DNA of 62,824 nucleotides from Gemmatimonadota bacterium (GTDB lineage Bacteria > Latescibacterota > UBA2968 > UBA8231): NCBI GenBank assembly GCA_038153405.1, contig JAYOYH010000017.1:28352-91175 (forward strand). Reading direction: 5' to 3'. The position numbers and the translations under genes were made by a program. Every line of letters starts with the position of its first letter. Position 1 is the first letter of the stretch. Of this stretch, positions 3,412 through 45,841 are shown piece by piece. Under the pieces are notes generated by a model. It was not told where the DNA came from and made no database searches. It worked only from the letters and a program-made list of their open reading frames with translations.

Positions 3412-3472
3412 AAGATTGGTGGTTAGCAGGTGTGTGTCAAGCTATTGACAGGCTAGGGGTAGCACCTAGATT
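3412..3472. promoter_or_regulatory. Back-to-back sigma70-type promoters for queC (-) and ispH (+)
   Basis: TGTCAA-gcta-TTGACA (3435-3450) gives a -35 on each strand; TAGATT at 3467-3472 (+) and CAATCT at 3418-3413 (-), each at 16-nt spacing. Confidence 0.5.
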
Positions 3473-3494
3473 GGGTAGGTGTCAGGAGATATAT

Positions 3495-4757
3495 ATGGCC
3501 TATTCTCAGTTCGATCGGGTGCCCAATCACTACGCCGGTCCCATCATCCAGCGGGTCAAGGATTTTCGCCAGGAAAAAGGGCGGCGTTCGCTGGTTCCGA
3601 CCGCGCTGCAAATCGGTCAGTTGGAGCTACTCATACCGCGCCATTTTGGTTTCTGCTTTGGCGTAGAGCGCGCCATCCACATGGCGTTTTCCATTTTGGA
3701 GAAGCAGCCCAATAAGCGGACCTATCTCGTCAGCGAGATTATTCACAACCCGCTGGTCAACAGCGAGCTCAAGGAGCGCGGCGTCGAGTTCGTCTACGAT
3801 ACAAACGGCCATCGCCAGGTGGGCGAGGACGAGCTCACCAGCGATGACGTGGTGCTCATACCTGCCTTTGGCACCACGCTGCAAGTGGAGGATTCGCTGC
3901 GGGCCAGCGGCATTGATATCGACGATGCGAACTATCGCGAACACTACGATACCACGTGTCCGTTCGTGTCGAAGGTGTGGAAGCGCGGAGAAGAACTGGG
4001 TCGCGAGGGCTACACGATTATCATCCACGGCAAGTATGGGCACGAGGAGACGCAGGCCACGCATTCCCACACAAAGGAGCACGCCAAAACGCTGGTCGTG
4101 CTGGACTGTGAAGAAGCGGAAAAGGTTGCTGCTTTTATCGTAGGCGAAATGAGCGCCGCGGCTTTTCGCGCCGAGTTTGCCGGCAAGTGGTCGGACGGTT
4201 TTGACCCCGAGCGCGATTTGCAGCGCGTTGCGGTCGTCAACCAGACGACCATGTTGGCCGCTGAAACGCAGCGCGTCGCGCAGATACTGTCTGCCGCTAT
4301 GGAGCGACGCTATGGCAGCGAAAATATAGAATACCACTGCGCCGATACCAACGATACGCTGTGCTATGCGACGAATCAGAACCAAAATGCCACGCACGCG
4401 CTGCTGCAGTCAGAGGCCGATCTAGCGCTTATCGTCGGAGGCTACAATAGCTCAAATACGTCGCACTTAGTGGAAATTTGTTCGCAGATGATGCCTAGCT
4501 ATCTCATCGCCAACAGCGACGAGTTGGTCTCTGCGCAGCAGATTCGCCACTTCGACATAGGGCGCAAGGAAGTTGTGTGTGACGAAAGGTGGTTGCCCCA
4601 GAGCCTGCCGCTGCGCATGGTGATCACCTCTGGTGCGTCGTGTCCAGATGTCCTTATGAACCGGGTTATTGAGCGCGTGGTAGAGCTGTGCGGATATGGC
4701 CGTGCAGATGTCGAGCGCGGCCTGAATGCCCTGCGCCTGTTCGAGGAGGCCACATGA
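3495..4757 (+). CDS. ispH: 4-hydroxy-3-methylbut-2-enyl diphosphate reductase
   Basis: FGFCFGVERA, EIIHNP, DTTCPFV, NQTTM, TLCYAT, GGYNSSNT and TSGASCP motifs; AGGAG RBS before ATG 3495. Confidence 0.95.
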   Translation: MAYSQFDRVPNHYAGPIIQRVKDFRQEKGRRSLVPTALQIGQLELLIPRHFGFCFGVERAIHMAFSILEKQPNKRTYLVSEIIHNPLVNSELKERGVEFVYDTNGHRQVGEDELTSDDVVLIPAFGTTLQVEDSLRASGIDIDDANYREHYDTTCPFVSKVWKRGEELGREGYTIIIHGKYGHEETQATHSHTKEHAKTLVVLDCEEAEKVAAFIVGEMSAAAFRAEFAGKWSDGFDPERDLQRVAVVNQTTMLAAETQRVAQILSAAMERRYGSENIEYHCADTNDTLCYATNQNQNATHALLQSEADLALIVGGYNSSNTSHLVEICSQMMPSYLIANSDELVSAQQIRHFDIGRKEVVCDERWLPQSLPLRMVITSGASCPDVLMNRVIERVVELCGYGRADVERGLNALRLFEEAT

Positions 4758-5059
4758 TCGTTGCACTGGTCAAAGGACACGTGGTTTCCTCTGCCAAAGT
4801 GGATAATTTAGAGGGAGAGAAACTGCTGCTAATCGAGATTCTCGCCGCGACGCCCGAAGGGCTCAAGCACACCGACCAACATATGGTGTGCATCGATTCG
4901 GTGCAGGCCGGCGAGGGCGAGTTGGTCGTCGTAGTGCAGGGTTCTTCGGCGCGCATTGCTGCGGGTATGAGCGACGTGCCGGTCGATGCGCTGGCGATAG
5001 GAATTGTCGATTCGCTGCAGGCATTTGGCCGTCAGCTAGCGCTGGAGGTTGTCCAGTGA
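4754..5059 (+). CDS. BMC vertex protein (BMC-P, EutN/CcmL family) 1
   Basis: MIVALVKGHVVSSAK...DSVQAGEGE...QGSSAR...DALAIGIVD; ATGA overlap with the ispH stop. Confidence 0.92.
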   Translation: MIVALVKGHVVSSAKVDNLEGEKLLLIEILAATPEGLKHTDQHMVCIDSVQAGEGELVVVVQGSSARIAAGMSDVPVDALAIGIVDSLQAFGRQLALEVVQ

Positions 5060-5301
5060 AGCGCTGCCGCGTCATCGGCCACGTCGTTGCCAACGCCAAG
5101 CACAGCGTATTGGACGGTCAGAAGATCATGGTCGTCAAGCCCGAGCCCGATGGTCCCATGCAATTGGCGCTGGACGGGGTTGGTGCGGGCATTGGCTCGC
5201 TGGTTATCGTCGCCGAGTCGGGCACGGCGGGCGCTCAGGTGACCGGGTGGGAACATCCGCCGGCGCGCAGCGTCATCGTCGGCATCATAGACGGAGCGTA
5301 A
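5056..5301 (+). CDS. BMC vertex protein (BMC-P, EutN/CcmL family) 2
   Basis: GTG start overlapping the previous TGA; RVIGHVVANAKH...LALDGVGAGIG...VIVGIID. Confidence 0.88.
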   Translation: MKRCRVIGHVVANAKHSVLDGQKIMVVKPEPDGPMQLALDGVGAGIGSLVIVAESGTAGAQVTGWEHPPARSVIVGIIDGA

Positions 5302-5305
5302 CGGT

Positions 5306-5572
5306 ATGAAATTGGGGAAAGTAGTTGGCACGGTCGTTCTATCGCACTGCATCGATTCCTTTCGCGGTCGACCGCTGCATTTGGTAATGAGCGTAAACGA
5401 AGATTTGCAACCTGTCGGCGAAGCGGAGGTCTGCACCACGTGGGAAGCGCGCAGCGAAGGAGAACTCGTCGTATTTGAGGTAGCGCGCGAAGCCGCCAAT
5501 ATCGCCGATCCGGCCATTCCATCGGATGCTTCCATTATCGGCAAAGTGGAAAAGGTGCATATCGAGCGGTAG
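5306..5572 (+). CDS. BMC vertex protein (BMC-P, EutN/CcmL family) 3, divergent
   Basis: MKLGKVVGTVV...EGELV...AREAA...SDASIIGKVE. Confidence 0.85.
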   Translation: MKLGKVVGTVVLSHCIDSFRGRPLHLVMSVNEDLQPVGEAEVCTTWEARSEGELVVFEVAREAANIADPAIPSDASIIGKVEKVHIER

Positions 5573-5597
5573 GGCGTCCTCGCCAGCACAACAACAG

Positions 5598-5638
5598 ATC
5601 GCCCGCGCTGCCATATAAAGCAGCGCGGGCGATTTTTT
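5598..5638 (+). terminator. Rho-independent terminator after the ispH/BMC-P genes
   Basis: Perfect 14-bp stem ATCGCCCGCGCTGC/GCAGCGCGGGCGAT, 8-nt loop, T-tract; lies between convergent genes. Confidence 0.85.
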
Positions 5639-5657
5639 GGCGATCCAAGCGGGTGTT

Positions 5658-6458
5658 TTAGGGGCCTACCACGCGGTTTTTGAGCTGGCCAATGCCCTCC
5701 AATTCGACGATGACCTCGTCGCCTGGTTTGAGCCAGACCGGCGGTTTGCGCGCAAAGCCGACTCCTTGCGGAGTGCCGGTGAGAATGACGGTGCCTGGCA
5801 GCAGCGTGGTGTCCTGGCTGAGAAAGCTAATGATTTCGGCGACGGAAAAAATCATGTCGCCGGTGGTGTGGTCCTGCATGGTCTGGCCGTTGAGAATCGT
5901 CTTGATGCCCAAGTTTTGCGGGTCGGCAATCTCGTCTGCCGTGACCAGCACCGGTCCAAGGGGGCAGAACGTGTCAAAACCCTTGCCGCGTATCCACTGG
6001 CCGCCGCCGGCATTGAGCTGCCACTTGCGGGCCGATACGTCGTTGGCGCAGGTATAGCCCAGCACGCAGTCCAGCGCATCGTCAACGCGCACATCGCGCA
6101 CTGGTCGTCCAATGACGACGGCCAGTTCGCACTCGTAGTCGACTTCTTCGTCCTGCTGGCAGGCCGGCAGGCGTATGGGGTCGCCGGGGTGGCAGAGCGC
6201 GCTGGTCGGCTTGGCAAAGACGATGGGTAGTTTGGGCTCTTCCATCCCCGACTCGGCGGCGTGCTCCCGATAGTTGAGCCCTATGCAATATATATTGGTC
6301 GGGGCGATGGGGGCTAGTAGCTTGGCAATAGGAGCGGTCGTTCCGCTCGGCGACAGGCCCGCGTAGAGATCGCCTTCGAGTATCTCGGCCTGGCCGCCCT
6401 CGCTTTCCGCGCCGTAGTGCTCGCGGTTTTCGCCATCTAAAAAACGAATAATGCGCAT
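5658..6458 (-). CDS. Fumarylacetoacetate hydrolase (FAH) family protein
   Basis: CIGLNYREH, DYECELAVVIG, NDVSAR, GKGFDTFCPLGP and ILTGTP motifs; GGAGGAG RBS before ATG 6458. Confidence 0.92.
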   Translation of the reverse strand: MRIIRFLDGENREHYGAESEGGQAEILEGDLYAGLSPSGTTAPIAKLLAPIAPTNIYCIGLNYREHAAESGMEEPKLPIVFAKPTSALCHPGDPIRLPACQQDEEVDYECELAVVIGRPVRDVRVDDALDCVLGYTCANDVSARKWQLNAGGGQWIRGKGFDTFCPLGPVLVTADEIADPQNLGIKTILNGQTMQDHTTGDMIFSVAEIISFLSQDTTLLPGTVILTGTPQGVGFARKPPVWLKPGDEVIVELEGIGQLKNRVVGP

Positions 6459-6495
6459 ATGTTCTCCTCCTTTTTTCGCCGCGTTACAGGCGATC

Positions 6496-6566
6496 AAGGT
6501 AGGCGTTGCAGGGCGCGAGTGTCAAGCCGAGGCCAACTTGACGGAGGGGGTGCCCCCGACTATTTT
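6496..6566. promoter_or_regulatory. Divergent sigma70-type promoters for the FAH gene (-) and the BMC core operon (+)
   Basis: (+) TTGACG 6538-6543, 17 nt, TATTTT 6561-6566; (-) TTGACA 6525-6520, 18 nt, TACCTT 6501-6496. Confidence 0.5.
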
Positions 6567-6618
6567 TCTGGGGCTGTATACGCACGTTGCGATATAGACA
6601 TCGAGTGAGGTGAAAAGC

Positions 6619-8046
6619 GTGGCCCATAACGCGAGCGAAGAACAAATTCGCAAAATAGTTGAAGAGGTTGTAAACCGCATTGTCGCAAACGGCAATGGCG
6701 CGTCTCATCGGGCGACCGCTGCCGGCGAGGGCGGCGTGTTCCCCACCATAGATGCTGCCGCGCAGGCGGCCACGCGGGCGCAGGAGCAGCTGGTCGCCAT
6801 GACGCTGGAGCAGCGCCGGTCGATCATCGAGGCCATTCGCCACGTATCGCGCGATCGCGCCGAAGACTTTTCCCGCCGCGCCTTGGATGAGACGGGCATG
6901 GGGCGGCTGGAGGACAAGATTCAGAAACACCGGGTAGCGGCCGATGCGACGCCGGGCATAGAAGATCTCGAAGCCAAGTCGTGGACTGGCGATCATGGGT
7001 TGACCGTGGTCGAGATGGCGCCCTACGGCGTGATTGGGGCGATTACGCCCTCTACCCATCCCGTGCCGACGATGGTCAACAACGCCATCTGTATTATTGC
7101 CGCGGGGAACTCGGTCGTGTTCAACGTGCATCCCGGTGCGAAGAACGTCTCGATGTACGCGGTGCGCCTGCTCAACGAGGCGATTGTCCAGGTCGGCGGA
7201 CCGGCCAATCTGATCACCGCTGTGGCGGAGCCAACCCTAGAGACGGCTAACCAATTGTTCACCCATCCCGGCATCCGCCTCTTGCTGGTTACCGGCGGAC
7301 CCGGCGTCGCCCAGGCTGCCATGGCCAGCCCGAAAAAGGCCATTGTCGCCGGTCCGGGTAACCCGCCCGTCGTCGTCGACGAGACGGCCGACCTCAAAAA
7401 AGCGGCCAGGGATATTATCGACGGCGGTGCCTTTGATAACAATATCCTCTGCCTAGGTGAAAAACAGGTTTTCGTCGTCGACAGCGTAGCCGATGAGCTC
7501 AAGCGCCATATGGTTGACTATAGCGCCTATGAACTCAACGCACAGCAAATTGAAGCGCTGGCTGCCGTAGCCTTTGTCAAAGGGTCCGACGGGCACCCGG
7601 TGGCCAACCGCGAATTGGTTGGTCGCAGCGCGTGGGTGCTGGCCGATCGCATTGGCATCAAGCTGGGCGAATCGCTGCGCATGCTCATCGGCGAGACGCG
7701 CGCTGACCACGTCTTTGTCGAAGAAGAACAGATGATGCCCTTTTTGCCGATCGTGCGGGTGCGCGACGTCGACGAGGGCATTCGCCTGGCGGTTATTTCC
7801 GAGCATGGCTACAAGCACACGGCGATCATTCACTCGCGCAATATCGAAAATATGCACAAGATGGCCTGCGCTGTGGATACGACGATTTTCGTGAAGAACG
7901 GCCCGTCCTTTGCCGGCGTCGGGCTAGGGGGCGAGGGTTTTGGCACCTATTCGATTGCCGGACCGACCGGCGAGGGGCTAACCTCGCCGCGCACGTTCAC
8001 GCGCGCGCGGCGCTGTGCGTTGGTCGACTATTTCCGCATTACCTAA
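6619..8046 (+). CDS. CoA-acylating aldehyde dehydrogenase (EutE/PduP family) with N-terminal encapsulation peptide
   Basis: PYGVIGAITPSTHP, VTGGPGV, AGPGNPPVVVDETAD, catalytic NNILCLGEK, AGPTGEGLTS; N-terminal amphipathic EEQIRKIVEEVVNRI; start GTG 6619 (or 6610). Confidence 0.93.
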   Translation: MAHNASEEQIRKIVEEVVNRIVANGNGASHRATAAGEGGVFPTIDAAAQAATRAQEQLVAMTLEQRRSIIEAIRHVSRDRAEDFSRRALDETGMGRLEDKIQKHRVAADATPGIEDLEAKSWTGDHGLTVVEMAPYGVIGAITPSTHPVPTMVNNAICIIAAGNSVVFNVHPGAKNVSMYAVRLLNEAIVQVGGPANLITAVAEPTLETANQLFTHPGIRLLLVTGGPGVAQAAMASPKKAIVAGPGNPPVVVDETADLKKAARDIIDGGAFDNNILCLGEKQVFVVDSVADELKRHMVDYSAYELNAQQIEALAAVAFVKGSDGHPVANRELVGRSAWVLADRIGIKLGESLRMLIGETRADHVFVEEEQMMPFLPIVRVRDVDEGIRLAVISEHGYKHTAIIHSRNIENMHKMACAVDTTIFVKNGPSFAGVGLGGEGFGTYSIAGPTGEGLTSPRTFTRARRCALVDYFRIT

Positions 8047-8058
8047 ACCGGTGGTGCG

Positions 8059-8358
8059 ATGATATTAGGACAAGTGCGCGGGCGCGTGGTATCGACGGCC
8101 AAAGTCGGCAGTTTAAACGGCAAAAAGCTGTTGATTGTAGAAGTCGTGTCCGTGCGTGAGCACGGCCTAGTGCGCACTGGTCGTGAAATGGTCTGCGTCG
8201 ATGCGGTGCAGGCCGGCGAGGGCGAACTGGTCTTCGTGGTTCAGGGATCTTCGTCGCGCATTGCACCGGATATGCGCGACGTGCCCACCGATGCGGTAAT
8301 CGTCGGCATTGTCGACTCGCTGCATTCGATGGGAAACGCTATGGAGCTGTGCGATTAA
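8059..8358 (+). CDS. BMC vertex protein (BMC-P, EutN/CcmL family) 4
   Basis: MILGQVRGRVVSTAK...DAVQAGEGE...QGSSSR...DAVIVGIVD; close paralog of 4754-5059. Confidence 0.93.
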   Translation: MILGQVRGRVVSTAKVGSLNGKKLLIVEVVSVREHGLVRTGREMVCVDAVQAGEGELVFVVQGSSSRIAPDMRDVPTDAVIVGIVDSLHSMGNAMELCD

Positions 8359-9054
8359 ATGGCGGCAGACGCACTACAGGGCTTGGACCGAGCGGCGATA
8401 GAACAGATCGTGCGCCGCGCCGTCTACGACTTTATGCCCGATGCCCAACTGGGGCGCACGGCCGGTCCCAACCTGTCGCCCGTACCGCGCTTGGTGGTCA
8501 ATATTTCGGCGCGCCATATCCATCTCAACCGCGAAGCCATGGACGTGCTCTTCGGACCGGGCAGCGAGTTGACGGTGCAAAAGGCGCTCTATCAGGAGGG
8601 CGCATTTGCCGCTGAAGAAACGCTATCGGTTTTTGGGCCGCGCAAGCAGGTTATTGCCAACGTGCGCGTCTTGGGGCCACTGCGCGAGTACAACCAGGTC
8701 GAGCTGGCTTTTACCGACGCGCGCTTCTTGGGCATTGATGCGCCGGTGCGGCTCAGCAGCCGCGTCGAGGGTTCTCCGGGGTGCTTCCTCGTTGGGCCGC
8801 ACGGCGGTCTCGAGCTGCGGGAAGGCGTAATTCGCGCCGCCCGACACGTGCATATGAGCCCAGAGGAAGCCGAGTACTACGGCGTGCAGGGGGGCGATCT
8901 CATGCGCTTGGTGATAGATAGTGAGCAGGGCGGCTCCCTGGAAGGGCTGATTTGCCGCGTCAGCAACAAGGAGAAGCTGGAAGTGCACTTAGATACAGAT
9001 GAGGGCAATGCGCTCGATCTGGTGCACGCCCGCAAAGTGTATTTGGAAAAGTAG
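8359..9054 (+). CDS. pduL: Phosphate acyltransferase (PduL family) with N-terminal encapsulation peptide
   Basis: NISARHIHL, VRVLGP, RAARHVHM and VHLDTDEGNA motifs; N-terminal LDRAAIEQIVRRAV. Confidence 0.93.
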   Translation: MAADALQGLDRAAIEQIVRRAVYDFMPDAQLGRTAGPNLSPVPRLVVNISARHIHLNREAMDVLFGPGSELTVQKALYQEGAFAAEETLSVFGPRKQVIANVRVLGPLREYNQVELAFTDARFLGIDAPVRLSSRVEGSPGCFLVGPHGGLELREGVIRAARHVHMSPEEAEYYGVQGGDLMRLVIDSEQGGSLEGLICRVSNKEKLEVHLDTDEGNALDLVHARKVYLEK

Positions 9055-9085
9055 AGTAGACTTCGCACACACCAGGAGGAAAGCG

Positions 9086-9646
9086 ATGTCGGATGCAATC
9101 GGAATGGTAGAAACAGTCGGGCTGGTGGGCATCGTCGAGGCCGGCGATGCCATGGCCAAAGCGGCCAGCGTACAGCTCTTGGGCTGGGACAAGGTCGGTT
9201 CGGGATTGGTTACGGTGTTTTGTTCGGGCGACGTAGCTGCCGTGAAGTCGGCCGTAGATGCTGGATCTACGGCAGCGGCCAAGGTCGGCAAGGTGCACTC
9301 GGTGCACGTGATCCCGCGTCCGCACGAGGAATTGGGCGCCATTATTCCGCACCGCGGCGAGGCGGGCTCATCAGACGGCGTGCGCGCGCTGGGCCTAATC
9401 GAAACGCGCGGTGCCACCGGTGTAATTGAGGCCGCTGATGCGATGAGCAAAGCGGCCGATGTAGATATCGTCAAAGTGCAGGAAATCGGCGGGGGCTACA
9501 TCACCGTGCTGGTCAGCGGCGACGTCGGATCGGTGCAGGCGTCGGTCAGCGCCGGAGCCGAGGCCTGCGCGCGCGTCGGCGAGTTGGTTTCGCAGCACGT
9601 GATCCCGCGTCCGCACGACGATGTGGTCGCCCTCTACTTGAGCTGA
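9086..9646 (+). CDS. BMC shell protein with two tandem BMC domains
   Basis: Two repeats of AIG/ALG-xxETxG...DAMxKAA...GDVxxV...HVIPRPH; AGGAGG RBS. Confidence 0.93.
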   Translation: MSDAIGMVETVGLVGIVEAGDAMAKAASVQLLGWDKVGSGLVTVFCSGDVAAVKSAVDAGSTAAAKVGKVHSVHVIPRPHEELGAIIPHRGEAGSSDGVRALGLIETRGATGVIEAADAMSKAADVDIVKVQEIGGGYITVLVSGDVGSVQASVSAGAEACARVGELVSQHVIPRPHDDVVALYLS

Positions 9647-9661
9647 TAGGAGATACGCACT

Positions 9662-9925
9662 ATGAAAGCACTTGGTATGGTGGAGACGAAGGGCCTGGTA
9701 TGCGTGGTCGAGGCCTTAGATGCAATGCTCAAAACGGCCGATGTGAGCTTCGCCGGCCAGAAGCGCGTCGGCAGCGGCTTCGTCGCCGTGCTCGTCGAGG
9801 GCGATGTGGCAGCGGTTAAAGCCGCCGTTGATGCCGGCGCCAGCGCGGCGCAGCGCGTCGGCGAGTTGCGCAGCGTGCACGTGATCCCGCGTCCGGTGTC
9901 AGACTTGACGCAGCACCTGTCGTAG
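9662..9925 (+). CDS. BMC hexameric shell protein (BMC-H, EutM/PduA-like)
   Basis: ALGMVETKG...DAMLKTA...VGSG...[10 protein letters not shown]...HVIPRP. Confidence 0.95.
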
Positions 9926-9937
9926 TCTGCGCTCCGC

Positions 9938-10432
9938 ATGGCTTCCGTCCTCTACATCGAAGAGGCCGTAATAACGGGCGATATGCTGTCGCGCCGCCAC
10001 GCCGGTGAAGAGCAGGTGTGCGTCGACGAGGGAGCGATTGTCACGCCGACGGGGTGGGACTATCTGCGCCAGAAACGCCTGCCGCTCAGCAGGGGCAAGA
10101 GCCCTGAGCCGGCTACCCCGGCTGCGCAAGCACCCGCTCGGCTCATTGCCGAAGTGGAGGCCCCGCAGATGGATGGGGCGGGGCGCTGCGACCATCCCGG
10201 GCGCTCGTGTGGCTGCCAAACCGAGGAGTTTGGCTCGGGTTATGTCGAGCCCAGTTCGTGTCGCGATTGCGCCATTTACCAGATGAAGAGCCGGGGCGAG
10301 AGTGGGGCCAGCTGTCACGGCTGCAATCGTCGTGCGCTGCTCGACCAGTTGATCGAGTCGGGGCAGGGCGTCGACCCGGAGCAGTTGATCGGTGAGGTGA
10401 CGGCGCTGGTCGTGCACCGCTTGGAGGATTGA
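9938..10432 (+). CDS. BMC-associated hypothetical protein: small N-terminal domain, Cys-rich centre, C-terminal encapsulation-like helix
   Basis: GAIVTPTGWDYLR motif; CDH..CGC, CRDC and CHGC; C-terminal VDPEQLIGEVTALVVHRL; embedded in the operon. Confidence 0.8.
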   Translation: MASVLYIEEAVITGDMLSRRHAGEEQVCVDEGAIVTPTGWDYLRQKRLPLSRGKSPEPATPAAQAPARLIAEVEAPQMDGAGRCDHPGRSCGCQTEEFGSGYVEPSSCRDCAIYQMKSRGESGASCHGCNRRALLDQLIESGQGVDPEQLIGEVTALVVHRLED

Positions 10433-10433
10433 G

Positions 10434-11015
10434 ATGCCCGCCGCTATCGGCCTAATAGAAGTCGAGGGAGTGGCCGGTATTATCGCGGCGGCCGACGCCG
10501 CGCTCAAAGCGGCCGACGTCGAGCTGCTCGGCTGGGAGTCAATCGGCGGGTTTACCACCGTCCTGTTTAGCGGTTCGATCAGCGATGTGGGTGCGGCCTT
10601 GGACAGCGGTCGGGCCGCCGCCGCGCAGGTCGTAGAGCACGTAGTTGCCGCGCCCGTGACACAGCCGCAGGAAGCCTGCCTGCGCTTTGCGAGTTTTCCC
10701 GTTCAAAAAGAAGCCATCGTGCGCGATGGTGCGCTGGGCCTGGTCGAAACCCGCGGCTACGCTGCCCACGTCTACGCCGATGACGATATGGTCAAAGCGG
10801 CTGATGTAGAGGTCGTCAATGTGCTAACGGTGCACAACCGGGTGGTTTGCTCTCTGGTGCAGGGCGACGTCGGCGCGGTGCGCGAGGCCATCGCGCGAGC
10901 CGAAATGCGCCTGCGAGACTATCCACATCTGCTGAGCACGTTGGTCTTGCCACAGCCGCGCCGCGAGGTATTGCAGACCTTTGCCGTGCAGCTGCGAGGA
11001 GAGGGCAGTGTCTAA
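10434..11015 (+). CDS. BMC shell protein with two tandem (divergent) BMC domains
   Basis: AIGLIEVEG...DAALKAA and ALGLVETRG...DDMVKAA...GDVGAV. Confidence 0.9.
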   Translation: MPAAIGLIEVEGVAGIIAAADAALKAADVELLGWESIGGFTTVLFSGSISDVGAALDSGRAAAAQVVEHVVAAPVTQPQEACLRFASFPVQKEAIVRDGALGLVETRGYAAHVYADDDMVKAADVEVVNVLTVHNRVVCSLVQGDVGAVREAIARAEMRLRDYPHLLSTLVLPQPRREVLQTFAVQLRGEGSV

Positions 11016-12159
11016 AGCCATTGGCGTACTCGAGACGCGCGGCATGGCTTCGCTGCTAAACGCCACCGACGCGATGCTAAAAGTATCCGATGTGCGCGTA
11101 GCCGGTCGCCACGGCATTGGTTCGGGTTGGGTGACGGTGGTGATTGAGGGGAGCGTCGCCGACGTACACGCCGCCATTGCCGTCGGCCGAGTCGAAGCTC
11201 AGCGCTACGGAGAGCTCATCGGTGCCGAGGTAATTGCGCGTCCGGACGCGCGTGCTCAGGAGGCGATGCCGCACGGTGCGGCCATCGGTGGCGCTGTATC
11301 GAGCGACGGCCGTGCGCTGGGCGTGGTGGAAACGCAGGGACTATCGCCGCTGATAGCGGCCGCCGATGCCATGGTTAAGGCGGCCGATGTCGACCTGTGC
11401 GGCTGGGCTTTTATTGGAGGTGCGCTGTGCCACGCCGTCGTGCGCGGCGACGTGGCCGCCGTGCAAACGGCCGTCGCGTCTGGCCGTCGCGCGGCAGAGG
11501 GCGTGGGCGCTACCTATGCTACGCTCGTTCTGCCACAGCCCGTCGCCGGCCTCGCGCCGCTGTTGCCGGCCTTGCCTAGCGGCGACGTGGGAGCGGGCGG
11601 TGCACTCGGCGTAGTGGAAACCATAGGTTACGCTACGGTCGTGGCGGTAGGCGATGCGATGGTCAAGGCCGCCGATGTCCAGGTGCGGCGACTGAGCATC
11701 GGCAGCGGCGGGCGCATTGCCGCGCTCGCGGTGGGAAGTTTAGACGCCGTGCAGGCGGCCGTAGGGGCGGGCATGCAGGAGGCTAGAGCCGTAGGTGAAC
11801 TGGACGGCAGCACGCTGGTATCGCGGCCGGACGGCGCCACCATGGCGTGCTTTGCCAGCTCGGTAGAGGGGCCGCGCCGCGCCGCCGCGCGCCGCGCACT
11901 TGGGCTCATAGAGACGCGCAGCACCGTTGCGCTAGTGCGCGCTGTCGACCAGATGTTAAAGGCGGCTGATGTCGAATACGAAGGCAGTTTTAAGGTGGGC
12001 TACTTTTTGACCGCCAGTGTGGTGCGCGGCGATGTCGGAGCCGTCAGGGTAGCTATCGATGTAGGCGCACAGGAAGCGGCAAAGCACGGCGAGCTCGTCT
12101 CTGCCCTCGTCATTCCGCAGCTGTATGGCGACGTCGAACTGCGCCTGCCGCATCAATGA
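11008..12159 (+). CDS. BMC shell protein with four tandem BMC domains
   Basis: Four repeats begin AIGVLETRG, ALGVVETQG, ALGVVETIG and ALGLIETRS, each with D-x-M-x-K; GTG 11008 preceded by GAGGAGAGG, overlapping the upstream gene by 8 nt. Confidence 0.9.
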   Translation: MSKAIGVLETRGMASLLNATDAMLKVSDVRVAGRHGIGSGWVTVVIEGSVADVHAAIAVGRVEAQRYGELIGAEVIARPDARAQEAMPHGAAIGGAVSSDGRALGVVETQGLSPLIAAADAMVKAADVDLCGWAFIGGALCHAVVRGDVAAVQTAVASGRRAAEGVGATYATLVLPQPVAGLAPLLPALPSGDVGAGGALGVVETIGYATVVAVGDAMVKAADVQVRRLSIGSGGRIAALAVGSLDAVQAAVGAGMQEARAVGELDGSTLVSRPDGATMACFASSVEGPRRAAARRALGLIETRSTVALVRAVDQMLKAADVEYEGSFKVGYFLTASVVRGDVGAVRVAIDVGAQEAAKHGELVSALVIPQLYGDVELRLPHQ

Positions 12160-12210
12160 TCACTAAAGGCATGGTGGTATTGGGAGCCGTGCGCAATTGA
12201 GGATAGCATT

Positions 12211-13380
12211 ATGGTTCGCATAGACGATTCGGTAATTACGGCACAGGTCTTGCAGGATCGATTGGGCGCCGAGCGCGAAGTCGAGATTTGCCCAATGGCT
12301 AAGCTGACACCTTCAGCACTCGACTTTTTGCGCGAGCGCAGCATTGAAGTAGCGCGCCGCGAGGCCCGTGCCACGGGTGGCACGGCCGTGGCTGCGGCGG
12401 CATCAACGCCGTCGTCGTCGCAACGCCGCGATTTCAAGGGTATCTTCTGTCCCAATATCGTCATCTTCGACAGCGCGGGTCGCATCAACTACGGCGAGAT
12501 GGAGCGCTACGTGAATTGGCTGATCGATGCGGGGATCCACGGGCTCTATCCCAACGGCAGCACGGGCGAGTTCGTGCGCCTGTCGTGGGAGGAACGCCAA
12601 GACGTGGTGCGCCTCATTGCCGAAGTAAACGGTGGCCGCGTGCCCATTCTGGCCGGTGCGAGCGAAGCCAATACGCGCGACGTGCTGAAAATGGCCGAGT
12701 TCTATGCCTCGATTGACGTAGATGCCATTTCGCTGGTCCCGCCCTTTTACTACAAGATTTCCAACGAGAGCCTCTTCGAGTATTTCGCCGAGGTCGCCGA
12801 GCAGTCGCCGCTCGATATTTTGCTTTACAACATACCGCAGTTTACGCAGGAACTTCCGCTGGAACTGATGGAGCGCCTGTTGCCGTACGAGCGCATTTTT
12901 GGCACGAAGGATTCCAGCCGCGATCTACCTCGCTTGATCAATACCATGCACCGTCTGCGCGCCCAGCGTCCCGACTATGTCGTGTTGGTCGGTTGCGAAG
13001 AAATTCTGTTTCCATCGGTAATGATGGGAGCCAGCGGTGGTACGATCGCTACATCCGGTATTGTGCCGGAAGTGATCGTCGAGCTGTATGAGCAGGCCTT
13101 GGTCAACAATGTCGACCGTGCGCGCACGCTGCAGTACCGCATTCTCGATCTGATCAACATCATGTTACTCGGAGTGAATTTCCCCGAGGGCTTTAAGACC
13201 GGGGTTGCCGTGCGCGGTTTTGACGTGGGTCCTGCTCGCGCGTCGACGAGTCCGGGCGAGCAGGAGTATCTGCTTAAACTCGAAGCGCAGATCGGCTGCG
13301 TGCTCAGCGATATGGGCTACTCAGTGCGCGGTGCGCGCGCCTGTCCCGTTACAAACCTGCCGCCTATCGTAGGCCGTTGA
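12211..13380 (+). CDS. DHDPS/N-acetylneuraminate-lyase family class I aldolase with an extra N-terminal domain
   Basis: NGSTGEF, LYNIP and Schiff-base Lys in GTKDSS; ~70-aa N-terminal extension with AKLTPSALDFLR. Confidence 0.88.
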   Translation: MVRIDDSVITAQVLQDRLGAEREVEICPMAKLTPSALDFLRERSIEVARREARATGGTAVAAAASTPSSSQRRDFKGIFCPNIVIFDSAGRINYGEMERYVNWLIDAGIHGLYPNGSTGEFVRLSWEERQDVVRLIAEVNGGRVPILAGASEANTRDVLKMAEFYASIDVDAISLVPPFYYKISNESLFEYFAEVAEQSPLDILLYNIPQFTQELPLELMERLLPYERIFGTKDSSRDLPRLINTMHRLRAQRPDYVVLVGCEEILFPSVMMGASGGTIATSGIVPEVIVELYEQALVNNVDRARTLQYRILDLINIMLLGVNFPEGFKTGVAVRGFDVGPARASTSPGEQEYLLKLEAQIGCVLSDMGYSVRGARACPVTNLPPIVGR

Positions 13381-14474
13381 GCGATTCCTCGGGCGCGCGG
13401 GTCCTCGTCGTTGGCGCGGGTATCATCGGCCGTTCGATCGCCTACTATCTCTGTCGCGCCGGTGCCCATCCCACACTGATTGAAGTGAGCGAAGGGCCTT
13501 CTGATTCTGAAGCCAGTCGCGCTTCGCTCGGAGTTCTTACCCATTTTAGCGGCGGCGCCAGCACGTATGCGCTATTCATACGCGATAGCCATGCCGCACA
13601 TGAGCCGCTAGCCGGCGAGTTAGCTGACGAGACGGGTATCGACGTAGGGTGGCGGCCGCTCGGTGGTATTGATCTGGTCATCGACGACGAGGGCGAAGAG
13701 CAGGTCGAATCGCTCTGGCGCGAAGGCTGTGCGCGCGGGGTGCCGCTCGAACGCTTGGCCGCGGCCGACGTGCAAAAAATGGAGCCTTCCGTTTCGCGCG
13801 TCGTGCGCTGGGGCCTCTTCTTTCCCGAAGACCAACGCGTTGCTCCGCTGTTGCTGGGAAAGGCGTTGCTCGAGGGAGCCGTTTCGCGCGGTGCACAGGT
13901 GCACTACGACGAGCGCTTGCTGCAGATCGAAGAGCGCGCCGACGGGAGCTTAGTGGCGCAGACGTCGCGCGCCAAGCGCAGCGCCGATTTTGTCGTGCTG
14001 GCCACCGGCGCTTGGACGGCGCATCTGGCCGAGTCGCTTGGCGCTACTGTCCCCGTGCGGCCGGTGCGCGGACAGCACGGCTGTTTTGCGGGGCCTGCCC
14101 TGCGCCACGTGCTGCGTCAGGGAGGGCATCAACTGCTCTCGAGCGCGCGCGGAACGTTGGTCGGCGCCACGGCCGAAGACGTTGGCTTTATCAACGAGAC
14201 GACGGCGGCCGCCGCGTGCGCGCTGGGCGCCGTTCACGCACAGTTGCTAAGAGGGCCCTGTATCCTGCATTCGCAGGGAGCGGGGCTGCGCGCCAAGCCC
14301 AAGGCCGGGCGTCCGATGATTGGTCCGCTCGCCAATCATCCGCGCATTTTCATTGCGACGGGGCACTATAAAAACGGCGTTCTAATGGGACCGCTAACCG
14401 GACAGATCGTCGCGCGCTGGATGCTCACAGGAGATCCGGGACGCGATATGCAGCCCTTTGTTCCCGAGCGCTAG
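13377..14474 (+). CDS. FAD-dependent amino-acid/amine oxidoreductase (DAO/glycine oxidase-like)
   Basis: VVGAGIIG FAD motif, VLATGAW, PVRGQ and ATGHYKNGVLMGP; TTGA overlap with the aldolase stop. Confidence 0.88.
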   Translation: MSDSSGARVLVVGAGIIGRSIAYYLCRAGAHPTLIEVSEGPSDSEASRASLGVLTHFSGGASTYALFIRDSHAAHEPLAGELADETGIDVGWRPLGGIDLVIDDEGEEQVESLWREGCARGVPLERLAAADVQKMEPSVSRVVRWGLFFPEDQRVAPLLLGKALLEGAVSRGAQVHYDERLLQIEERADGSLVAQTSRAKRSADFVVLATGAWTAHLAESLGATVPVRPVRGQHGCFAGPALRHVLRQGGHQLLSSARGTLVGATAEDVGFINETTAAAACALGAVHAQLLRGPCILHSQGAGLRAKPKAGRPMIGPLANHPRIFIATGHYKNGVLMGPLTGQIVARWMLTGDPGRDMQPFVPER

Positions 14475-14534
14475 TTGGGCGATAGATGGCATCTGCCAGC
14501 GGGATGGAAGACAGGGCACTGCGCAATATTTCGA

Positions 14535-14562
14535 TTCACATTTATTTGTTTTCACATATATT
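14535..14562 (+). promoter_or_regulatory. Putative promoter for the second DHDPS-family gene, with a TTCACAT direct repeat
   Basis: AT-rich island; TTCACA, 16 nt, TATATT; TTCACAT at 14535 and 14551; AGGAGG RBS downstream. Confidence 0.4.
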
Positions 14563-14582
14563 AGGAAATCTAGGAGGACGTA

Positions 14583-15524
14583 ATGACTATTGCGACAAAT
14601 GAGTTAATCGAATCCCTAAATTCCGTCACTTCGATTCCCGTAGTGCCTTTTCGCGGTGGCAAAATCGACTACGACGCCCATGCCAAGAATATCCGCTATT
14701 TGATGGATAACAATCATTTGGATGGGGATCGCCGGCGCGTAATCGGCATCGCCGGCACGAGCTTGATCCACCATATTGGGCGCGACGAACAGGTGCGTCT
14801 GATCGACTTTACCGGCCAACAGATGGCCGGGCGTGGCGTCCTCATGTCCGGTATCGCGCCCAATCCCATTGCCGACGCCGAAGACCTTATTCGCCGCGAA
14901 GCTGCGCTGCCAGTAGCGCCCGACTGCTATCTGGTGATGCCGCTGACGGGCGTGGGCAATGCCGAGGGCATTTTCCAAAACCACTTGGATATGGCCGAGC
15001 GTCTGGGCCGCGAAACGGGTGCGCGTTTTCTGTATTACCTGCGCAACAAGGCCGAGCGCGAGACGGCCGTCCGCTTGCTCAACGAGTCCGAGTATTTTAT
15101 CGGTCTCAAAATTGGCACCGATATCGACGATGTGAAGTCGATTGTAGAGGGCGTCAACGACGGGGCTGGTATCGTCATATGGGGTGTGGGTGATCGCTCT
15201 ACCGGGCCGGCTAGCCGCGGAACGCTAGGTCATACTTCCGGTATTAACGTGGTCTTTGTCCGCGCGTCTGATGCGATTAACAACGCTCAGCGCAGCGGCG
15301 ATCTGCAGGCCTCGCAGCGCGTCGAAGACGAAATTGCCGCCTTTGAGGAAATTCGCTTTCGCGATAGCCGCATGTACAATTACTCCGCCGTGGTTGAGGC
15401 GATGCATATAGTGGGCAGCGATGCGATTGATGGCGGCGATGGCGGCCCATTCAATCCGCGCGTACCGGCTGAAGTGGCGCGCGAAGTGGCGGCAGCCATT
15501 GAGCCCTTGATGCAGTACCACTAG
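14583..15524 (+). CDS. Divergent DHDPS-family (TIM-barrel Schiff-base lyase/dehydratase) protein
   Basis: IPVVPF..GKIDYDA N-terminus, LYYLR Tyr, IGLKIG Lys, GHTSG; AGTS in place of GSTGE. Confidence 0.7.
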   Translation: MTIATNELIESLNSVTSIPVVPFRGGKIDYDAHAKNIRYLMDNNHLDGDRRRVIGIAGTSLIHHIGRDEQVRLIDFTGQQMAGRGVLMSGIAPNPIADAEDLIRREAALPVAPDCYLVMPLTGVGNAEGIFQNHLDMAERLGRETGARFLYYLRNKAERETAVRLLNESEYFIGLKIGTDIDDVKSIVEGVNDGAGIVIWGVGDRSTGPASRGTLGHTSGINVVFVRASDAINNAQRSGDLQASQRVEDEIAAFEEIRFRDSRMYNYSAVVEAMHIVGSDAIDGGDGGPFNPRVPAEVAREVAAAIEPLMQYH

Positions 15525-15790: not shown

Positions 15791-16093
15791 TTATTCCACC
15801 TGTCCCAAGCGGGCGAGGTAGGCTTCCCACTCGATGGGCAACATATATCGCTTCTGGTTATTGCACTCTTTACAGCAGGGGACGACGTTGGACTTCACGG
15901 TATAGCCGCCGCGGCTTAGCGGCACGACGTGGTCCATCGTCAACTCCGTCGGTGGGAAGTGGTCCTGACAGTAGTAACAGTGCCCGGAAGCGCGCCGGTT
16001 TTTCCACCACTGGGATCGGCGCATTTGACGGGCCTTATTTTTTTCTCTGTTTATGTGTTCTTCAGATGCGGCTGAAAAGTAGTCTTCCGTCAT
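15791..16093 (-). CDS. Small HNH endonuclease family protein
   Basis: CYYC...LTMDHVVPLSRGG...SNVVPCCKECNNQK. Confidence 0.9.
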   Translation of the reverse strand: MTEDYFSAASEEHINREKNKARQMRRSQWWKNRRASGHCYYCQDHFPPTELTMDHVVPLSRGGYTVKSNVVPCCKECNNQKRYMLPIEWEAYLARLGQVE

Positions 16094-16787: not shown

Positions 16788-17456
16788 CTACTCCAACGGG
16801 TCGACGAAGATATTGTGTGCGACCTCTAATCCCAGCAGATGCTCTGCATCGGCTTCGACGAGCAGTTTGATCGGGCCGCTAAAGGGCGCCTTATCACAGA
16901 CCTGGATCGTAGTGCCCAACTGCAATCCCATATCGTCCATATAGCGCAGCATTTCCGGATCGCGGTCGCTGACGCGGCGTATGACGGCTCGCCGGCCCAT
17001 CTCTATGTCCGATAAGCGCGGATAGATCTGCTCTTCGATATGCCCCTCTTTGTTGGGAATCGGTTCACCGTGGGCCCCAACGGTGGGATAGCCCAGCGCC
17101 TTGTCTATGCGTTCCTCAAATTCTTCCGATATGGCGTGTTCCAGGCGCTCTGCTTCGGCGTCGACCGCATCCCACGGATAGCCCAGCGCCTCGGACAGAT
17201 AGAGCTCGATGAGCCGGTGGTGGCGAATGGTCTCGAGCGCAATTTTTTTGCCCGTCTGCGTCAGTTCAACCCCTCTGTAAGGCGCGTATTCCAGCAGGTT
17301 CATCTCCGCCAATTTCTTGATCATATTGGTCGCTGAGGCAGCGGTTACGGCCATGCGTTCGGCGATGAGTGAAGTCGTCACCTTTGTCGCCGACTCCCCC
17401 CCATTTTCCAGCTTGTAAATAATTTTGAGGTAGTCCTCAACGGACTGGCTGAGCAT
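16788..17456 (-). CDS. mntR: DtxR/MntR-family metal-dependent repressor with FeoA/SH3-like C-terminal domain
   Basis: SVEDYLKIIY, HHRLIELYL and EAERLEHAIS motifs; GAGGTG RBS before ATG 17456. Confidence 0.9.
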   Translation of the reverse strand: MLSQSVEDYLKIIYKLENGGESATKVTTSLIAERMAVTAASATNMIKKLAEMNLLEYAPYRGVELTQTGKKIALETIRHHRLIELYLSEALGYPWDAVDAEAERLEHAISEEFEERIDKALGYPTVGAHGEPIPNKEGHIEEQIYPRLSDIEMGRRAVIRRVSDRDPEMLRYMDDMGLQLGTTIQVCDKAPFSGPIKLLVEADAEHLLGLEVAHNIFVDPLE

Positions 17457-17530
17457 AAGCACCTCTGTGTTTCCGGTTGGATTGCACAATGGAATTACAA
17501 CGGGCGACAATGCCATAATTAGTAACGACC

Positions 17531-17563
17531 TTGACTTTAATTTAGTCAAGACTAAATTAAAGT
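17531..17563. promoter_or_regulatory. Palindromic DtxR/MntR-type operator overlapping the transporter promoter
   Basis: Perfect 14-bp inverted repeat ACTTTAATTTAGTC-AA-GACTAAATTAAAGT (17534-17563) overlapping TTGACT, 16 nt, TAAATT between divergent mntR and troA. Confidence 0.8.
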
Positions 17564-17574
17564 AAGATGCGAGA

Positions 17575-17598
17575 AAATATCACTACAAATATCACTAC
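17575..17598 (+). repeat. Tandem 12-bp direct repeat AAATATCACTAC in the troA leader
   Basis: Two exact adjacent copies immediately before the GGAGG RBS. Confidence 0.75.
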
Positions 17599-17608
17599 GG
17601 AGGTCGTT

Positions 17609-18529
17609 ATGATTTTTCGCTCTATCGCTTTGGTGGTGATGGCTGCCCTGCTGGGCTGTGCAAGTGAGACGGTCGAAGATGCAGCCAGCGCAGAGCGGGT
17701 GAATGTAGTGTGTACGACGGGTATGGTCGCCGATCTGGCACAGCGCATAGGGGGCGACCGCGTTCGGGTCATTGGCCTGATGGGCCCTGGGGTCGATCCG
17801 CACTACTTCAAGGCCTCGCAGGGCGATTTGGCCAACTTGCAGCGCGCCGACCTGATTCTATACAATGGCCTCTTTTTAGAGGGCAAGATGCAGGACATCT
17901 TTGACAAAATGGCGCGCGGGAAGAAGGTCGTCGCCGTGGCGGATGCCATCGAGAAAGAACGCCTGCGCCAGCCCGCCGAATTCGAGGGACACTACGATCC
18001 GCACATCTGGTTTGACGTGGCTCTGTGGAGTGAGACAATCGACGCCGTAGTGCGCGCGCTGAGCGAAGTCGATCCAGCGGGTGCGCAGATTTTCGACCAA
18101 AATGGCGCGGGCTATCGCCAAGAACTGCTCCAGTTACACGCTTGGGTTGGTCAACAGGTTGAACTGGTGCCCAACGAACAGCGCGTGCTGATTACGGCAC
18201 ACGATGCCTTCGGCTACTTTGGCCGCGCCTACGGCATAGAAGTTATGGGTCTACAGGGTATTTCTACCGTGGCTGAATACGGCGTCAACGATGTAACGAA
18301 GCTGGTCGATCTGATTTCGCGGCGCAAAATACGCGCCATATTTGTCGAGAGCAGCGTGTCTGAGCGCTCTATTGAAGCGGTGCGCCAGGGTTGTTTAGAG
18401 CGCGGTCACCAAGTTGCAATCGGCGGCACGCTCTATTCGGACGCGATGGGCGAGGCCGGCAGCGGTGCGGATACGTACGTCGGCATGGTGCGCCATAACG
18501 TAGAGACGATTGCAGGGGCTTTGCGATGA
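17609..18529 (+). CDS. troA: Mn/Zn/Fe ABC transporter substrate-binding lipoprotein (TroA/MntA)
   Basis: LLGC lipobox, [20 protein letters not shown] and LYSDAMG motifs. Confidence 0.92.
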
Positions 18530-19317
18530 GTGAAATCACGCATTCGCCTGGCGCTGTTGCGCCGATTCAGATCCACGATATGACGATCGCCTACCACAAG
18601 AAGCCGGTGCTGTGGGACGTCGATATAGACGTGCCCGAAGGCGTGCTGGTTGGCATCATTGGTCCCAATGGGGCTGGTAAGAGCACGATGATTAAGGCGG
18701 TGATGGACTTAGTGCCCAAGGCGTCGGGTTGGGTCAAAATATACGATCGGCCTTACGATCAGATGCGCAGTGCCATCGGCTACGTGCCGCAGCGCGAGTC
18801 GGTCGACTGGGACTTTCCCGTCAATGCACTCGACGTAGTGCTGATGGGGCGCTACGGCCACGTTGGCTGGGTGCGGCGGCCGAGAGCTGAAGATCGGCGC
18901 ATCGCTGCCGAAGCGCTTGAAAAAGTCGGCATGGGCGAATTCGCCCAGCGGCAAATCAGCCAGCTTTCGGGTGGCCAGCAGCAGCGCGTGTTTCTGGCGC
19001 GGGCGCTGGCACAGGATGCGCGCATTTATATGATGGACGAACCTTTTGCCGGCGTTGATGCGGCCACGGAAAGGGCGATTATCGATATTCTCGTCGAGCT
19101 GCGCCGCCAGGGCAAGACCATTTTGGTCGTGCACCACGACTTGCAGACGGTGACCGAATACTTCGACTGGGTCATCATGTTGAATATGCGCGTGGTTGCT
19201 GCCGGGCCGACGAGCGAGGTCTTTACCAATGAGAATCTGCAGAAGACCTACGGCGGTCGCCTGACGGTTCTGAGCCAGGCTGCCCAGGCCATGGCCGACC
19301 AGCGACGAGGTCACTGA
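18526..19317 (+). CDS. troB: Metal ABC transporter ATP-binding protein (TroB/MntB)
   Basis: [25 protein letters not shown] and VHHD motifs. Confidence 0.93.
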
Positions 19318-36035: not shown

Positions 36036-37559
<1,524 letters not shown>

Positions 37560-37563
<4 letters not shown>

Positions 37564-37943
37564 GCACCGGTCTCCAATACTTCTTCGACTACGGCCTTGA
37601 CGCTTTCCGGGCGCACGGGTTTGCACAGGTAGTCGCGAATGCCCAGGCCGCGCAGATCGTCCATGCGCTTCTGGCTCGAGTCGCTGGTTACGACGACGAC
37701 GGGCACCGATTCCAATAGGCCATCTTTTGCCATGGCTTCTATCATCTCTACTCCGGTCATGACGGGCATGTGCAAGTCGGTGATGACCAGATCAATCCAG
37801 TTTTCCTTGAGCATGGAGAGGGCATCAGAGCCGTTTTCGGCGATAAATACTTCGTTGATTGGCAGGCCGCTAATCCTGAGCATTTTGGCCAGCATCATGC
37901 GCGCCGTTTTGGAGTCGTCGACGACGAGGACGTTGTAACTCAT
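37560..37943 (-). CDS. cheY: CheY-like response regulator
   Basis: VLVVDDS, ITDLHMP, VVTS and CKP; inside the che operon. Confidence 0.85.
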
Positions 37944-39273: not shown

Positions 39274-39556
39274 CGTCCACTTTCGCCCGTTAATATACGT
39301 CAATATTCATCGAGTGGGCCAGTGATTTTTTGTTTCGTAAGTTATTTATATTTAGATATTTAAAAATACGAATACAGTTGTAAAAACGGTTGGGTAGCAG
39401 GCCCGCCACGCCGGCTAATAGCGGCGGGGAATGCGTGCTCAGTGCGTGGGGCCGTCGTTGACGGCCGGGCGACTCCAGCGCGACGCTATTGCCGTCGCTG
39501 CTGCGCATGAGCGCGCGCTTATGGAAAACGAGAATTGAGGGAGGGGCTTCTGTGCC

Positions 39557-40054: not shown

Positions 40055-40086
40055 GGTGAAGTATCTCCGCTTGCTTGAGGTATTCG

Positions 40087-43083: not shown

Positions 43084-43150
43084 AGCGAACGAGTCTCGTT
43101 GGTATTGCGCAGTGAGGAAATGCGTTGACAAGGGTCAAAAGATAGTACAA

Positions 43151-43166
43151 TGCAAGTTATATGCCA
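43151..43166 (-). promoter_or_regulatory. sigma54 (-24/-12) promoter of cheA
   Basis: TGGCAT-ATAAC-TTGCA on the minus strand; AT-rich, IHF-like tract upstream (~43190-43230). Confidence 0.75.
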
Positions 43167-45838: not shown

Positions 45839-45841
45839 GAA

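Follow-up and report, generated by a model that had tools for sequence, protein, structure and literature searches.

We analysed a bacterial microcompartment (BMC) locus at positions 4754-15524 of a 62,824-nucleotide stretch of DNA, hereafter the window, which corresponds to positions 28,352 to 91,175 of the forward strand of contig JAYOYH010000017.1 in assembly GCA_038153405.1 (Gemmatimonadota bacterium; Latescibacterota in GTDB). The locus opens with a plus-strand triplet of genes for BMC-P vertex proteins: protein 1 (4754-5059; PF03319, E 3e-23), whose gene overlaps ispH by 4 nt, protein 2 (5056-5301; PF03319, E 9e-20), and protein 3 (5306-5572; PF03319, E 2e-11). The gene that follows on the minus strand (5658-6458) encodes a hydrolase of the fumarylacetoacetate hydrolase (FAH) family (PF01557), and a 15-pair hairpin at 5598-5633, a pattern match only, is a likely terminator between it and the convergent triplet. 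The best NCBIfam model for the FAH-family protein was 2,4-didehydro-3-deoxy-L-rhamnonate hydrolase, at 220 bits below its cut-off of 500. The remaining genes of the locus are all on the plus strand. First comes an acylating aldehyde dehydrogenase (ALDH) of the PduP/EutE type (6610-8046), which scored 661 bits against NF011927 (cut-off 403), had 5JFL and 4C3S as its top PDB matches, and aligned its Cys282 with the Cys of 5JFL. A fourth BMC-P gene (8059-8358; PF03319), a paralog of that for protein 1 (57%), and the gene for the phosphotransacylase PduL (8359-9054; PF06130; NF011652, 219 bits against a cut-off of 209) lie next to it. Both ALDH and PduL carry an N-terminal amphipathic helix of the encapsulation type, with hydrophobic moments of 0.68 and 0.60, respectively, although the moment is not discriminating, the C-terminus of the second DHDPS-fold protein described below also reaching 0.61.

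PF00936 domains were found in four genes encoding the two-domain shell protein H2a (9086-9646), a single-domain BMC-H (9662-9925), the two-domain shell protein H2b (10434-11015), and the four-domain shell protein H4 (11008-12159). Hence, the 4 BMC-P genes and the 9 BMC domains in 4 genes (2 + 1 + 2 + 4) that the original prediction had listed were confirmed by profile, as were the EutE/PduP-type ALDH and PduL with their N-terminal helices by profile scores and hydrophobic moments. Downstream of H4 are genes for a class I aldolase of the dihydrodipicolinate synthase/N-acetylneuraminate lyase (DHDPS/NAL) family, a likely accessory cargo (12211-13380; PF00701, E 3e-55), for a glycine-oxidase-like flavoprotein of the D-amino acid oxidase (DAO) family (13377-14474; PF01266, E 6e-54), which overlaps the aldolase gene by 4 nt, and for a divergent second DHDPS-fold protein lacking the GxxGE motif (14583-15524; PF00701, E 2e-5). 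The DHDPS-family, DAO-family, FAH, and weak second DHDPS assignments of the original prediction were all reproduced by profile. The genes in that inventory are real, but it had overlooked a gene for a Cys-rich protein at 9938-10432, which has no Pfam match, is represented by 53 homologs that were read, and is diagnostic of the MUF2 type of BMC. Intergenic gaps from the ALDH gene to the DAO gene range from -8 to +51 nt, and the oxidase is likely co-transcribed with this operon; the second DHDPS gene starts 108 nt past the DAO gene and has its own promoter-like match. We infer at least three transcription units. The earlier picture of one operon flanked by FAH was not confirmed: only the genes from ALDH to DAO form a tight run, the minus-strand FAH gene is internal to the cluster, separating the BMC-P triplet from the ALDH gene, and the triplet overlaps ispH. 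In some relatives, the triplet (3432-5572 together with ispH) sits elsewhere.

MUF2 was catalogued from 13 loci by Sutter et al. in 2021 (PMC8217296, Supplementary Data 2), and only this catalogue and its preprint turned up in a literature search for the type. The present genome has ALDH and phosphotransacylase in the main locus, the former bearing an N-terminal peptide, and a satellite locus in which a BMC-H accompanies a pfam00596 aldolase that bears a C-terminal peptide. It also has a BMC-P triplet plus an extra copy, double and quadruple BMC-H fusions, and a lone satellite BMC-H with a C-terminal extension on contig C14 near 15.5-16.0 kb, the sole BMC match there. The locus contains one single-domain BMC-H, its other PF00936 genes being fusions, and the MUF2 entry lists fusions too. 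Furthermore, the Cys-rich protein is encoded between BMC-H and BMC-T genes as in MUF2; it consists of an N-terminal domain of about 50 amino acids, a Cys-rich middle, and a C-terminal encapsulation-type helix, and the helix scored at least 12 on the peptide profile in 44 of 52 homologs. Its N-terminal domain is shared with the nearby pfam00701 aldolase (hhalign, 99%), and these are the only two occurrences of the domain in the genome. The host lineage is similar, and no difference from MUF2 was seen in the features tested. We are therefore nearly certain that the locus is a further member of this catalogued type, and the proposal that it may be an uncharacterised BMC type was given up. The view of it as a metabolosome without a measured substrate stands, MUF2 being catalogued but experimentally untested. 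The catalogue places the MUF2 ALDH beside that of the PVM type, and its authors propose PVM-like substrates for MUF2 without a test (PMC8217296). The MUF2 entry itself assigns no role to the class I aldolase and is silent on the oxidase, FAH, the travelling H2b-H4-aldolase module, and the helix-bearing distant relatives described below.

Subsequently, the gene content was compared across 61 genomes, namely the own genome (G000, 93% complete) and 60 relatives, 36 of which are members of the same family and 24 of other families; all are metagenome-assembled genomes (MAGs). ALDH was present in 54 of the 61 genomes, including all 24 of other families. In the own genome, the only PF00596 gene lies on contig C20 (27351-28106, minus strand), two genes from a BMC-H gene (29038-29325, minus strand), and encodes a class II aldolase that ends in an amphipathic helix. 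The absence of a class II aldolase claimed by the original prediction is thus correct for the window but not for the genome. Class II orthologs (E < 1e-75; four genomes with weaker matches counted as lacking) were found in 45 of the 54 ALDH-bearing genomes and the class I aldolase in 27. In the nine other-family genomes that were mapped, the class II gene belongs to the main locus, whose order is PduL, BMC-H, BMC-P, ALDH, two BMC-P, and class II aldolase; seven of the nine also have an acetate kinase gene close by. Five of five more distant genomes had the same core arrangement. These counts favour the class II aldolase, not the class I aldolase, as the core enzyme. Its C-terminus was read in 36 genomes: the helix was present in 32, absent in three, all shell-less, and unreadable in one, and the satellite enzyme retained it in all 23 shell-bearing family members read. 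The three helix-less enzymes fall among the four genomes without a BMC domain (84-93% complete), and that the tail disappears along with the shell is the strongest argument for the class II aldolase as cargo. A membrane-protein gene (L114; C20, 28109-29011, minus strand), of the lysylphosphatidylglycerol-synthase type by eye, stands between the satellite BMC-H and class II aldolase genes in most family members mapped and is still beside the aldolase gene in three shell-less genomes.

We also compared the neighbourhoods of the class I aldolase gene across 76 loci. The gene follows H4 in 73, the remaining three loci beginning at or inside the gene; H2b, which travels with H4 and the aldolase, adjoins H4 in 70; and 17 loci contain only these three genes. 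In G057, the aldolase gene is more than 2 Mb away from that of ALDH, and the aldolase was not found in the four shell-less genomes. Close relatives of the aldolase are from MAGs whose labels are mostly Latescibacterota, Gemmatimonadetes, or Handelsmanbacteria, and the enzyme is strongly conserved (67-94% identity). The sequence contains GSTGE, Tyr206, and Lys233 and, including the TIM barrel, has the class I features of the DHDPS/NAL family; we take the roles of GxxGE, Tyr206, and Lys233 to be those known from that family. Lys233 is present in 73 of 73 aligned copies and Tyr206 in 63. In the predicted model, a folded domain (residues 1-50) is joined to the barrel by a disordered linker. The best sequence match was 2-keto-3-deoxygluconate (KDG) aldolase and the best fold match YagE, both near 30% identity, and the protein scored below the cut-offs of the DapA, NanA, KdgD, and archaeal KDG aldolase equivalogs of NCBIfam. 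The KDG aldolase 4UXD and E. coli YagE/YjhH share with it the TIM-barrel fold and the Schiff-base Lys and Tyr, and in a by-eye motif comparison it was the most YagE-like of the aligned DHDPS paralogs of the genome. It differs from the 2-keto-3-deoxy sugar acid aldolases, at about 27-30% identity, in its extra N-terminal domain and a Cys-bearing C-terminal tail. FucH, an aldolase for 2-keto-3-deoxy-L-fuconate (L-KDF), presumably belongs to the DHDPS family as well. The route through FucH is described in PMC11199699.

A phylum-wide search for relatives of this aldolase (80 of 140 genomes matched) yielded five distant relatives at 48-51% identity; seven genomes with matches of 31-34% fell outside these five. 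None of the five has the N-terminal domain. All of them end in a helix resembling the ALDH peptide and directly precede a two-domain shell gene; their helix profile scores are modest, ranging from 0.1 to 14.7, and a single one of the five reaches at least 12. Zinc dehydrogenases are among the neighbours of two of the five. Plasmid relatives were considered as a guide to the substrate and set aside as too distant (34% identity at most among the 40 listed). The peptide profile was trained on class II aldolase tails and is insensitive to N-terminal peptides, reaching at least 12 in 11 of 49 ALDH and 0 of 50 PduL sequences, so that its zeros are weak evidence. The N-terminal domain matched the N-terminus of E. 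coli EutT (72%, E 3e-5); E. coli EutQ, at 4%, gave a negligible match and was rejected. Pfam and PDB sequence searches with it gave no meaningful match, and leads from the Atlas were all under 0.9 ('putative ethanolamine utilization protein', 0.81). The best 120 of 228 longer proteins carrying the domain consisted of this aldolase and of fragments in which no other Pfam family was recognised. The domain was also seen on an RpiB-family protein with an N-terminal encapsulation-like helix in G037 (L205, 1012-1857, minus strand). The position after H4 and the helix-bearing relatives beside a shell gene make the proposed association of the class I aldolase with the metabolosome likely, and we consider the enzyme a likely cargo.

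Two of the shell proteins accompany this aldolase. The predicted model of H4 had a predicted TM (pTM) score of 0.88, and its domain pairs matched the synthetic tandem BMC-H of 6NER with a TM score of about 0.9, compared with about 0.4 for natural BMC-T; the model fits an arc of four hexamer-like subunits. H2b and H4 (10434-12159 together) sum to six domains and, as a hypothesis, could form one heterodimeric six-domain shell tile. Prediction of a complex of H4, H2b, and the aldolase N-terminal domain scored 0.00 (mark, 0.32), which counts neither way.

The distribution of sugar-metabolism genes was also examined. Of the 48 genomes counted as having the helix-type class II aldolase, a tally in which 15 other-family genomes with unread C-termini were assumed to be helix-bearing, 44 have a rhamnulokinase-like gene; so do 3 of 13 others, those three being fragmented same-genus assemblies. 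This gene accompanies the class I aldolase in 26 of 28 genomes, and the six genomes lacking class I at the locus all lack it too. L-Rhamnose isomerase exceeded its cut-off in 15 genomes, all with ALDH and including 4 of 7 of the same genus. In the own genome, the models for fucose mutarotase and L-rhamnonate dehydratase were each matched above the cut-off, and a single GH29 fucosidase and a homolog of acetate kinase are present. Where relatives have rhaI, contig C18 of the own genome carries a transposase-like gene (84586-85611; IS30-like by eye) with sugar-nucleotide-type genes after it; the transposase-like gene comes after an upstream gene shared with the rhaI-bearing relatives. Paralog expansions are seen in the own genome, with 11 PF00701 matches (the second DHDPS gene excluded), 11 RhmA/HpcH-like matches, and 44 enolase-family matches, and recall the pattern of SAR202 (PMC10444878). 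The relevant passages of PMC10444878 describe no fucose/rhamnose BMC of this sort. A fucose/rhamnose role was proposed in silico for BMCs of other Latescibacteria (PMC4454575), the chemistry of the PVM type is that of a fucose/rhamnose metabolosome (PMC4207490), and a non-phosphorylative route to pyruvate and lactaldehyde has been described (PMC11199699, PMC6817895).

On balance, we consider it probable that the locus encodes a PVM-like organelle with lactaldehyde as its aldehyde and the class I aldolase as a second cargo. In this scheme, a 6-deoxy-ketose would be phosphorylated in the cytosol by the rhamnulokinase-like enzyme, and the encapsulated, satellite-encoded class II aldolase would cleave the phosphorylated ketose to dihydroxyacetone phosphate and L-lactaldehyde. 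ALDH would then convert L-lactaldehyde to lactyl-CoA, PduL would convert lactyl-CoA to lactyl-phosphate, and an enzyme of the acetate kinase family would form lactate and ATP. The class I aldolase, recruited via its folded N-terminal domain and accompanied by its own shell proteins H2b and H4, would cleave a 2-keto-3-deoxy sugar acid, as a first guess 2-keto-3-deoxy-L-rhamnonate (L-KDR) or L-KDF, and release pyruvate along with an aldehyde on which the same ALDH would act. We infer that it is an accessory module through which a non-phosphorylated sugar acid supplies the same shell with aldehyde. A broader generalisation is put forward tentatively: MUF2 may be a dual-entry organelle in which phosphorylative and non-phosphorylative routes meet in one aldehyde pool, with a portable DHDPS-aldolase/shell module, a C-terminal encapsulation helix traded in this lineage for a folded domain like that of EutT, and possibly the H2b/H4 tile.

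Similar arrangements are known from other systems. Like PVM (PMC4207490), the system has a class II aldolase, acylating ALDH, PduL, several BMC-P genes, and, in the genome, an acetate kinase homolog. In contrast to PVM, the locus has no DeoR regulator, lactate/malate dehydrogenase, or acetate kinase, its class II aldolase is in a satellite, and it adds multi-domain shell fusions and the class I aldolase. The locus likely works like PVM, but it is not classed as PVM. The signature enzyme of the SPU type is already a class I aldolase, carried as BMC cargo and extended at its N-terminus. The SPU enzyme is of the DeoC family (pfam01791) with a helical extension (PMC11585597), whereas that found here is of the DHDPS/NAL family (pfam00701) with a predicted beta-alpha folded domain. 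Neither of the SPU markers DeoC (pfam01791) and RpiB (pfam02502) was found among the genes of the locus. The 'EUT module' satellites (PMC8217296) are similar in that they open a BMC to a further substrate by adding a signature-type enzyme and a shell protein dedicated to it, but the module here pairs the class I aldolase with shell proteins of two and four domains. No description of DHDPS-family aldolases as BMC cargo was found in the literature searched.

Several observations weigh against the lactaldehyde scheme. The class II aldolase passed no NCBIfam cut-off, its best model being 3-oxo-tetronate 4-phosphate decarboxylase (138 against 250 bits), and the rhamnulokinase-like gene of the own genome scored 482 bits against a cut-off of 528. 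Neither L-fucose nor L-rhamnose isomerase was found in the own genome at its 93% completeness, and the L-rhamnose isomerase was limited to the 15 of 61 genomes mentioned above. Close orthologs of the own rhamnonate dehydratase occurred in only 5 of 61 genomes, in a search that was non-discriminating because paralogs near 40% are present almost everywhere. The 11 RhmA/HpcH-like matches could split the same acids in the cytosol, and the locus yielded no alcohol dehydrogenase gene. The kinase was not matched in four genomes with a helix-type class II aldolase (G010, G017, G023, and G039), two genomes (G015 and G028) have the class I aldolase without a class II ortholog or the kinase, and two (G009 and G025) have neither aldolase. 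The last two genomes (loci L153 and L154) are single contigs and contain ALDH, PduL, fused shell genes, and one BMC-P at the locus, with no aldolase or kinase match. As for the class I aldolase, its identity to any solved enzyme is about 30%, its encapsulation helix was recognised in 0 of 75 copies by the profile, whose zeros are weak, and Cys replaces Tyr206 in 10 of 73 copies. These ten form one terminal cluster, a recent lineage, in the tree, which is a quick version omitting 5 of 76 rows and the first 60 residues, and they may reflect either changed chemistry or decay; the copies are those of L081, L083, L084, L086-L090, L096, and L100. Finally, the kin share ancestry and are not independent, so that the tallies are not statistical tests.

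Another possibility, which we regard as unlikely, is that the same organelle handles a different aldehyde, either glycolaldehyde or glyceraldehyde formed by the two aldolases from pentose- or hexose-derived substrates, or a broad range of short hydroxy-aldehydes. The closest solved relatives of the class I aldolase act on KDG, most other-family genomes combine the kinase and the class II aldolase with no rhamnose isomerase match, and the five distant relatives of the class I aldolase are neighboured by GlcE/GlcF-like genes (3/5) or by an enolase-family dehydratase and a short-chain dehydrogenase/reductase (2/5). However, the GlcF-like proteins score on a lactate dehydrogenase model too and are thus compatible with lactate as well, the rhamnulokinase-like gene tracks the class II aldolase, and the catalogue puts the MUF2 ALDH next to PVM (PMC8217296).

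It is improbable, to a somewhat greater degree, that the class I aldolase is now the main aldehyde source in the family and has reduced a displaced class II enzyme to a secondary role. The location of the class I gene, and not the class II gene, in the main operon would agree with this, as would the missing sugar isomerase of the own genome and the shells that G015 (one contig) and G028 keep together with class I. Against it, six family members have shell genes with the oxidase directly after H4 and no class I gene between, the satellite class II helix is kept in every shell-bearing family member read, and Tyr206 has been replaced in one recent lineage. The six genomes in which class I is dispensable, the replaced Tyr, and the absence of a helix by profile could also mean that the class I aldolase is co-regulated or structural in a plain PVM-like organelle and is not an encapsulated catalyst. 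We consider this very unlikely, because the enzyme is strongly conserved and Lys233 invariant, all five distant relatives bear an encapsulation-like helix, and the N-terminal domain, which resembles that of EutT, is found again on proteins with a helix.

The oxidase, FAH, and second DHDPS genes were then weighed as parts of the organelle chemistry, in which the original prediction had included them. In all four shell-less genomes, the gene order queC, ispH, FAH, oxidase, second DHDPS is preserved. FAH is present in 34 of the 76 loci; the oxidase in 34 of 36 family members, with three weak matches (29-32%) among the 24 other-family genomes; and the second DHDPS gene in 26 of 36 family members and 0 of 24 other-family genomes. 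These three genes do not depend on the organelle, and, as they are kept at the site in shell-less relatives, they are not signature enzymes. The oxidase in particular, once a candidate signature enzyme, occurs in other genomes without shell genes and without the aldolase. Against TIGR02352 (ThiO glycine oxidase) it scored 153 bits, below the cut-off of 251, and a role as thiazole-pathway ThiO was unsupported, the ThiG match of the genome being weak and partial (28 bits over 59 of 247 positions). A hydroxyproline-type pair of oxidase and deaminase was also considered as a model, and dropped because the two genes separate in both directions. That the oxidase and class I aldolase form a signature pair converting a hydroxy-amino acid via a 4-hydroxy-2-oxo acid to an aldehyde has next to no probability, since, although the two reading frames share 4 nt and lie side by side in 57 of 76 loci, this model is already contradicted by the distribution of the oxidase, which stays in place in the shell-less genomes and in the six without the aldolase, has no close match in the 24 other-family genomes with their ALDH, is absent from the 17 loci holding only H2b, H4, and the aldolase, and bears the helix in 0 of 57 copies by profile. 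The family of the second DHDPS-fold protein has GTSLIH in place of GxxGE and comprises 964 proteins at E <= 1e-20, with no informative name among the best 120 of them.

Elsewhere in the window, queC and queF lie on either side of a dimethylformamidase beta-subunit-like gene (PF20254; 739-3404, minus strand), and a small stand-alone HNH endonuclease gene is located at 15791-16093 (minus strand). A metal ABC transporter with an MntR-like regulator and a chemotaxis/two-component cluster were recognised by eye at 16788-21922 and 36036-47752.

Because the locus belongs to a type already catalogued, its value as a discovery is modest. The comparison removes three false candidate enzymes from consideration, points to a core route of the class II aldolase and the rhamnulokinase-like enzyme, and leaves two enzymes, one domain, and two shell proteins as defined candidates for tests by expression in E. 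coli. If the second entry through the class I aldolase is true, DHDPS-family aldolases would be added to BMC cargo, and engineers would gain a folded targeting domain, a cargo tag of a second kind, together with a shell protein that naturally has four domains.

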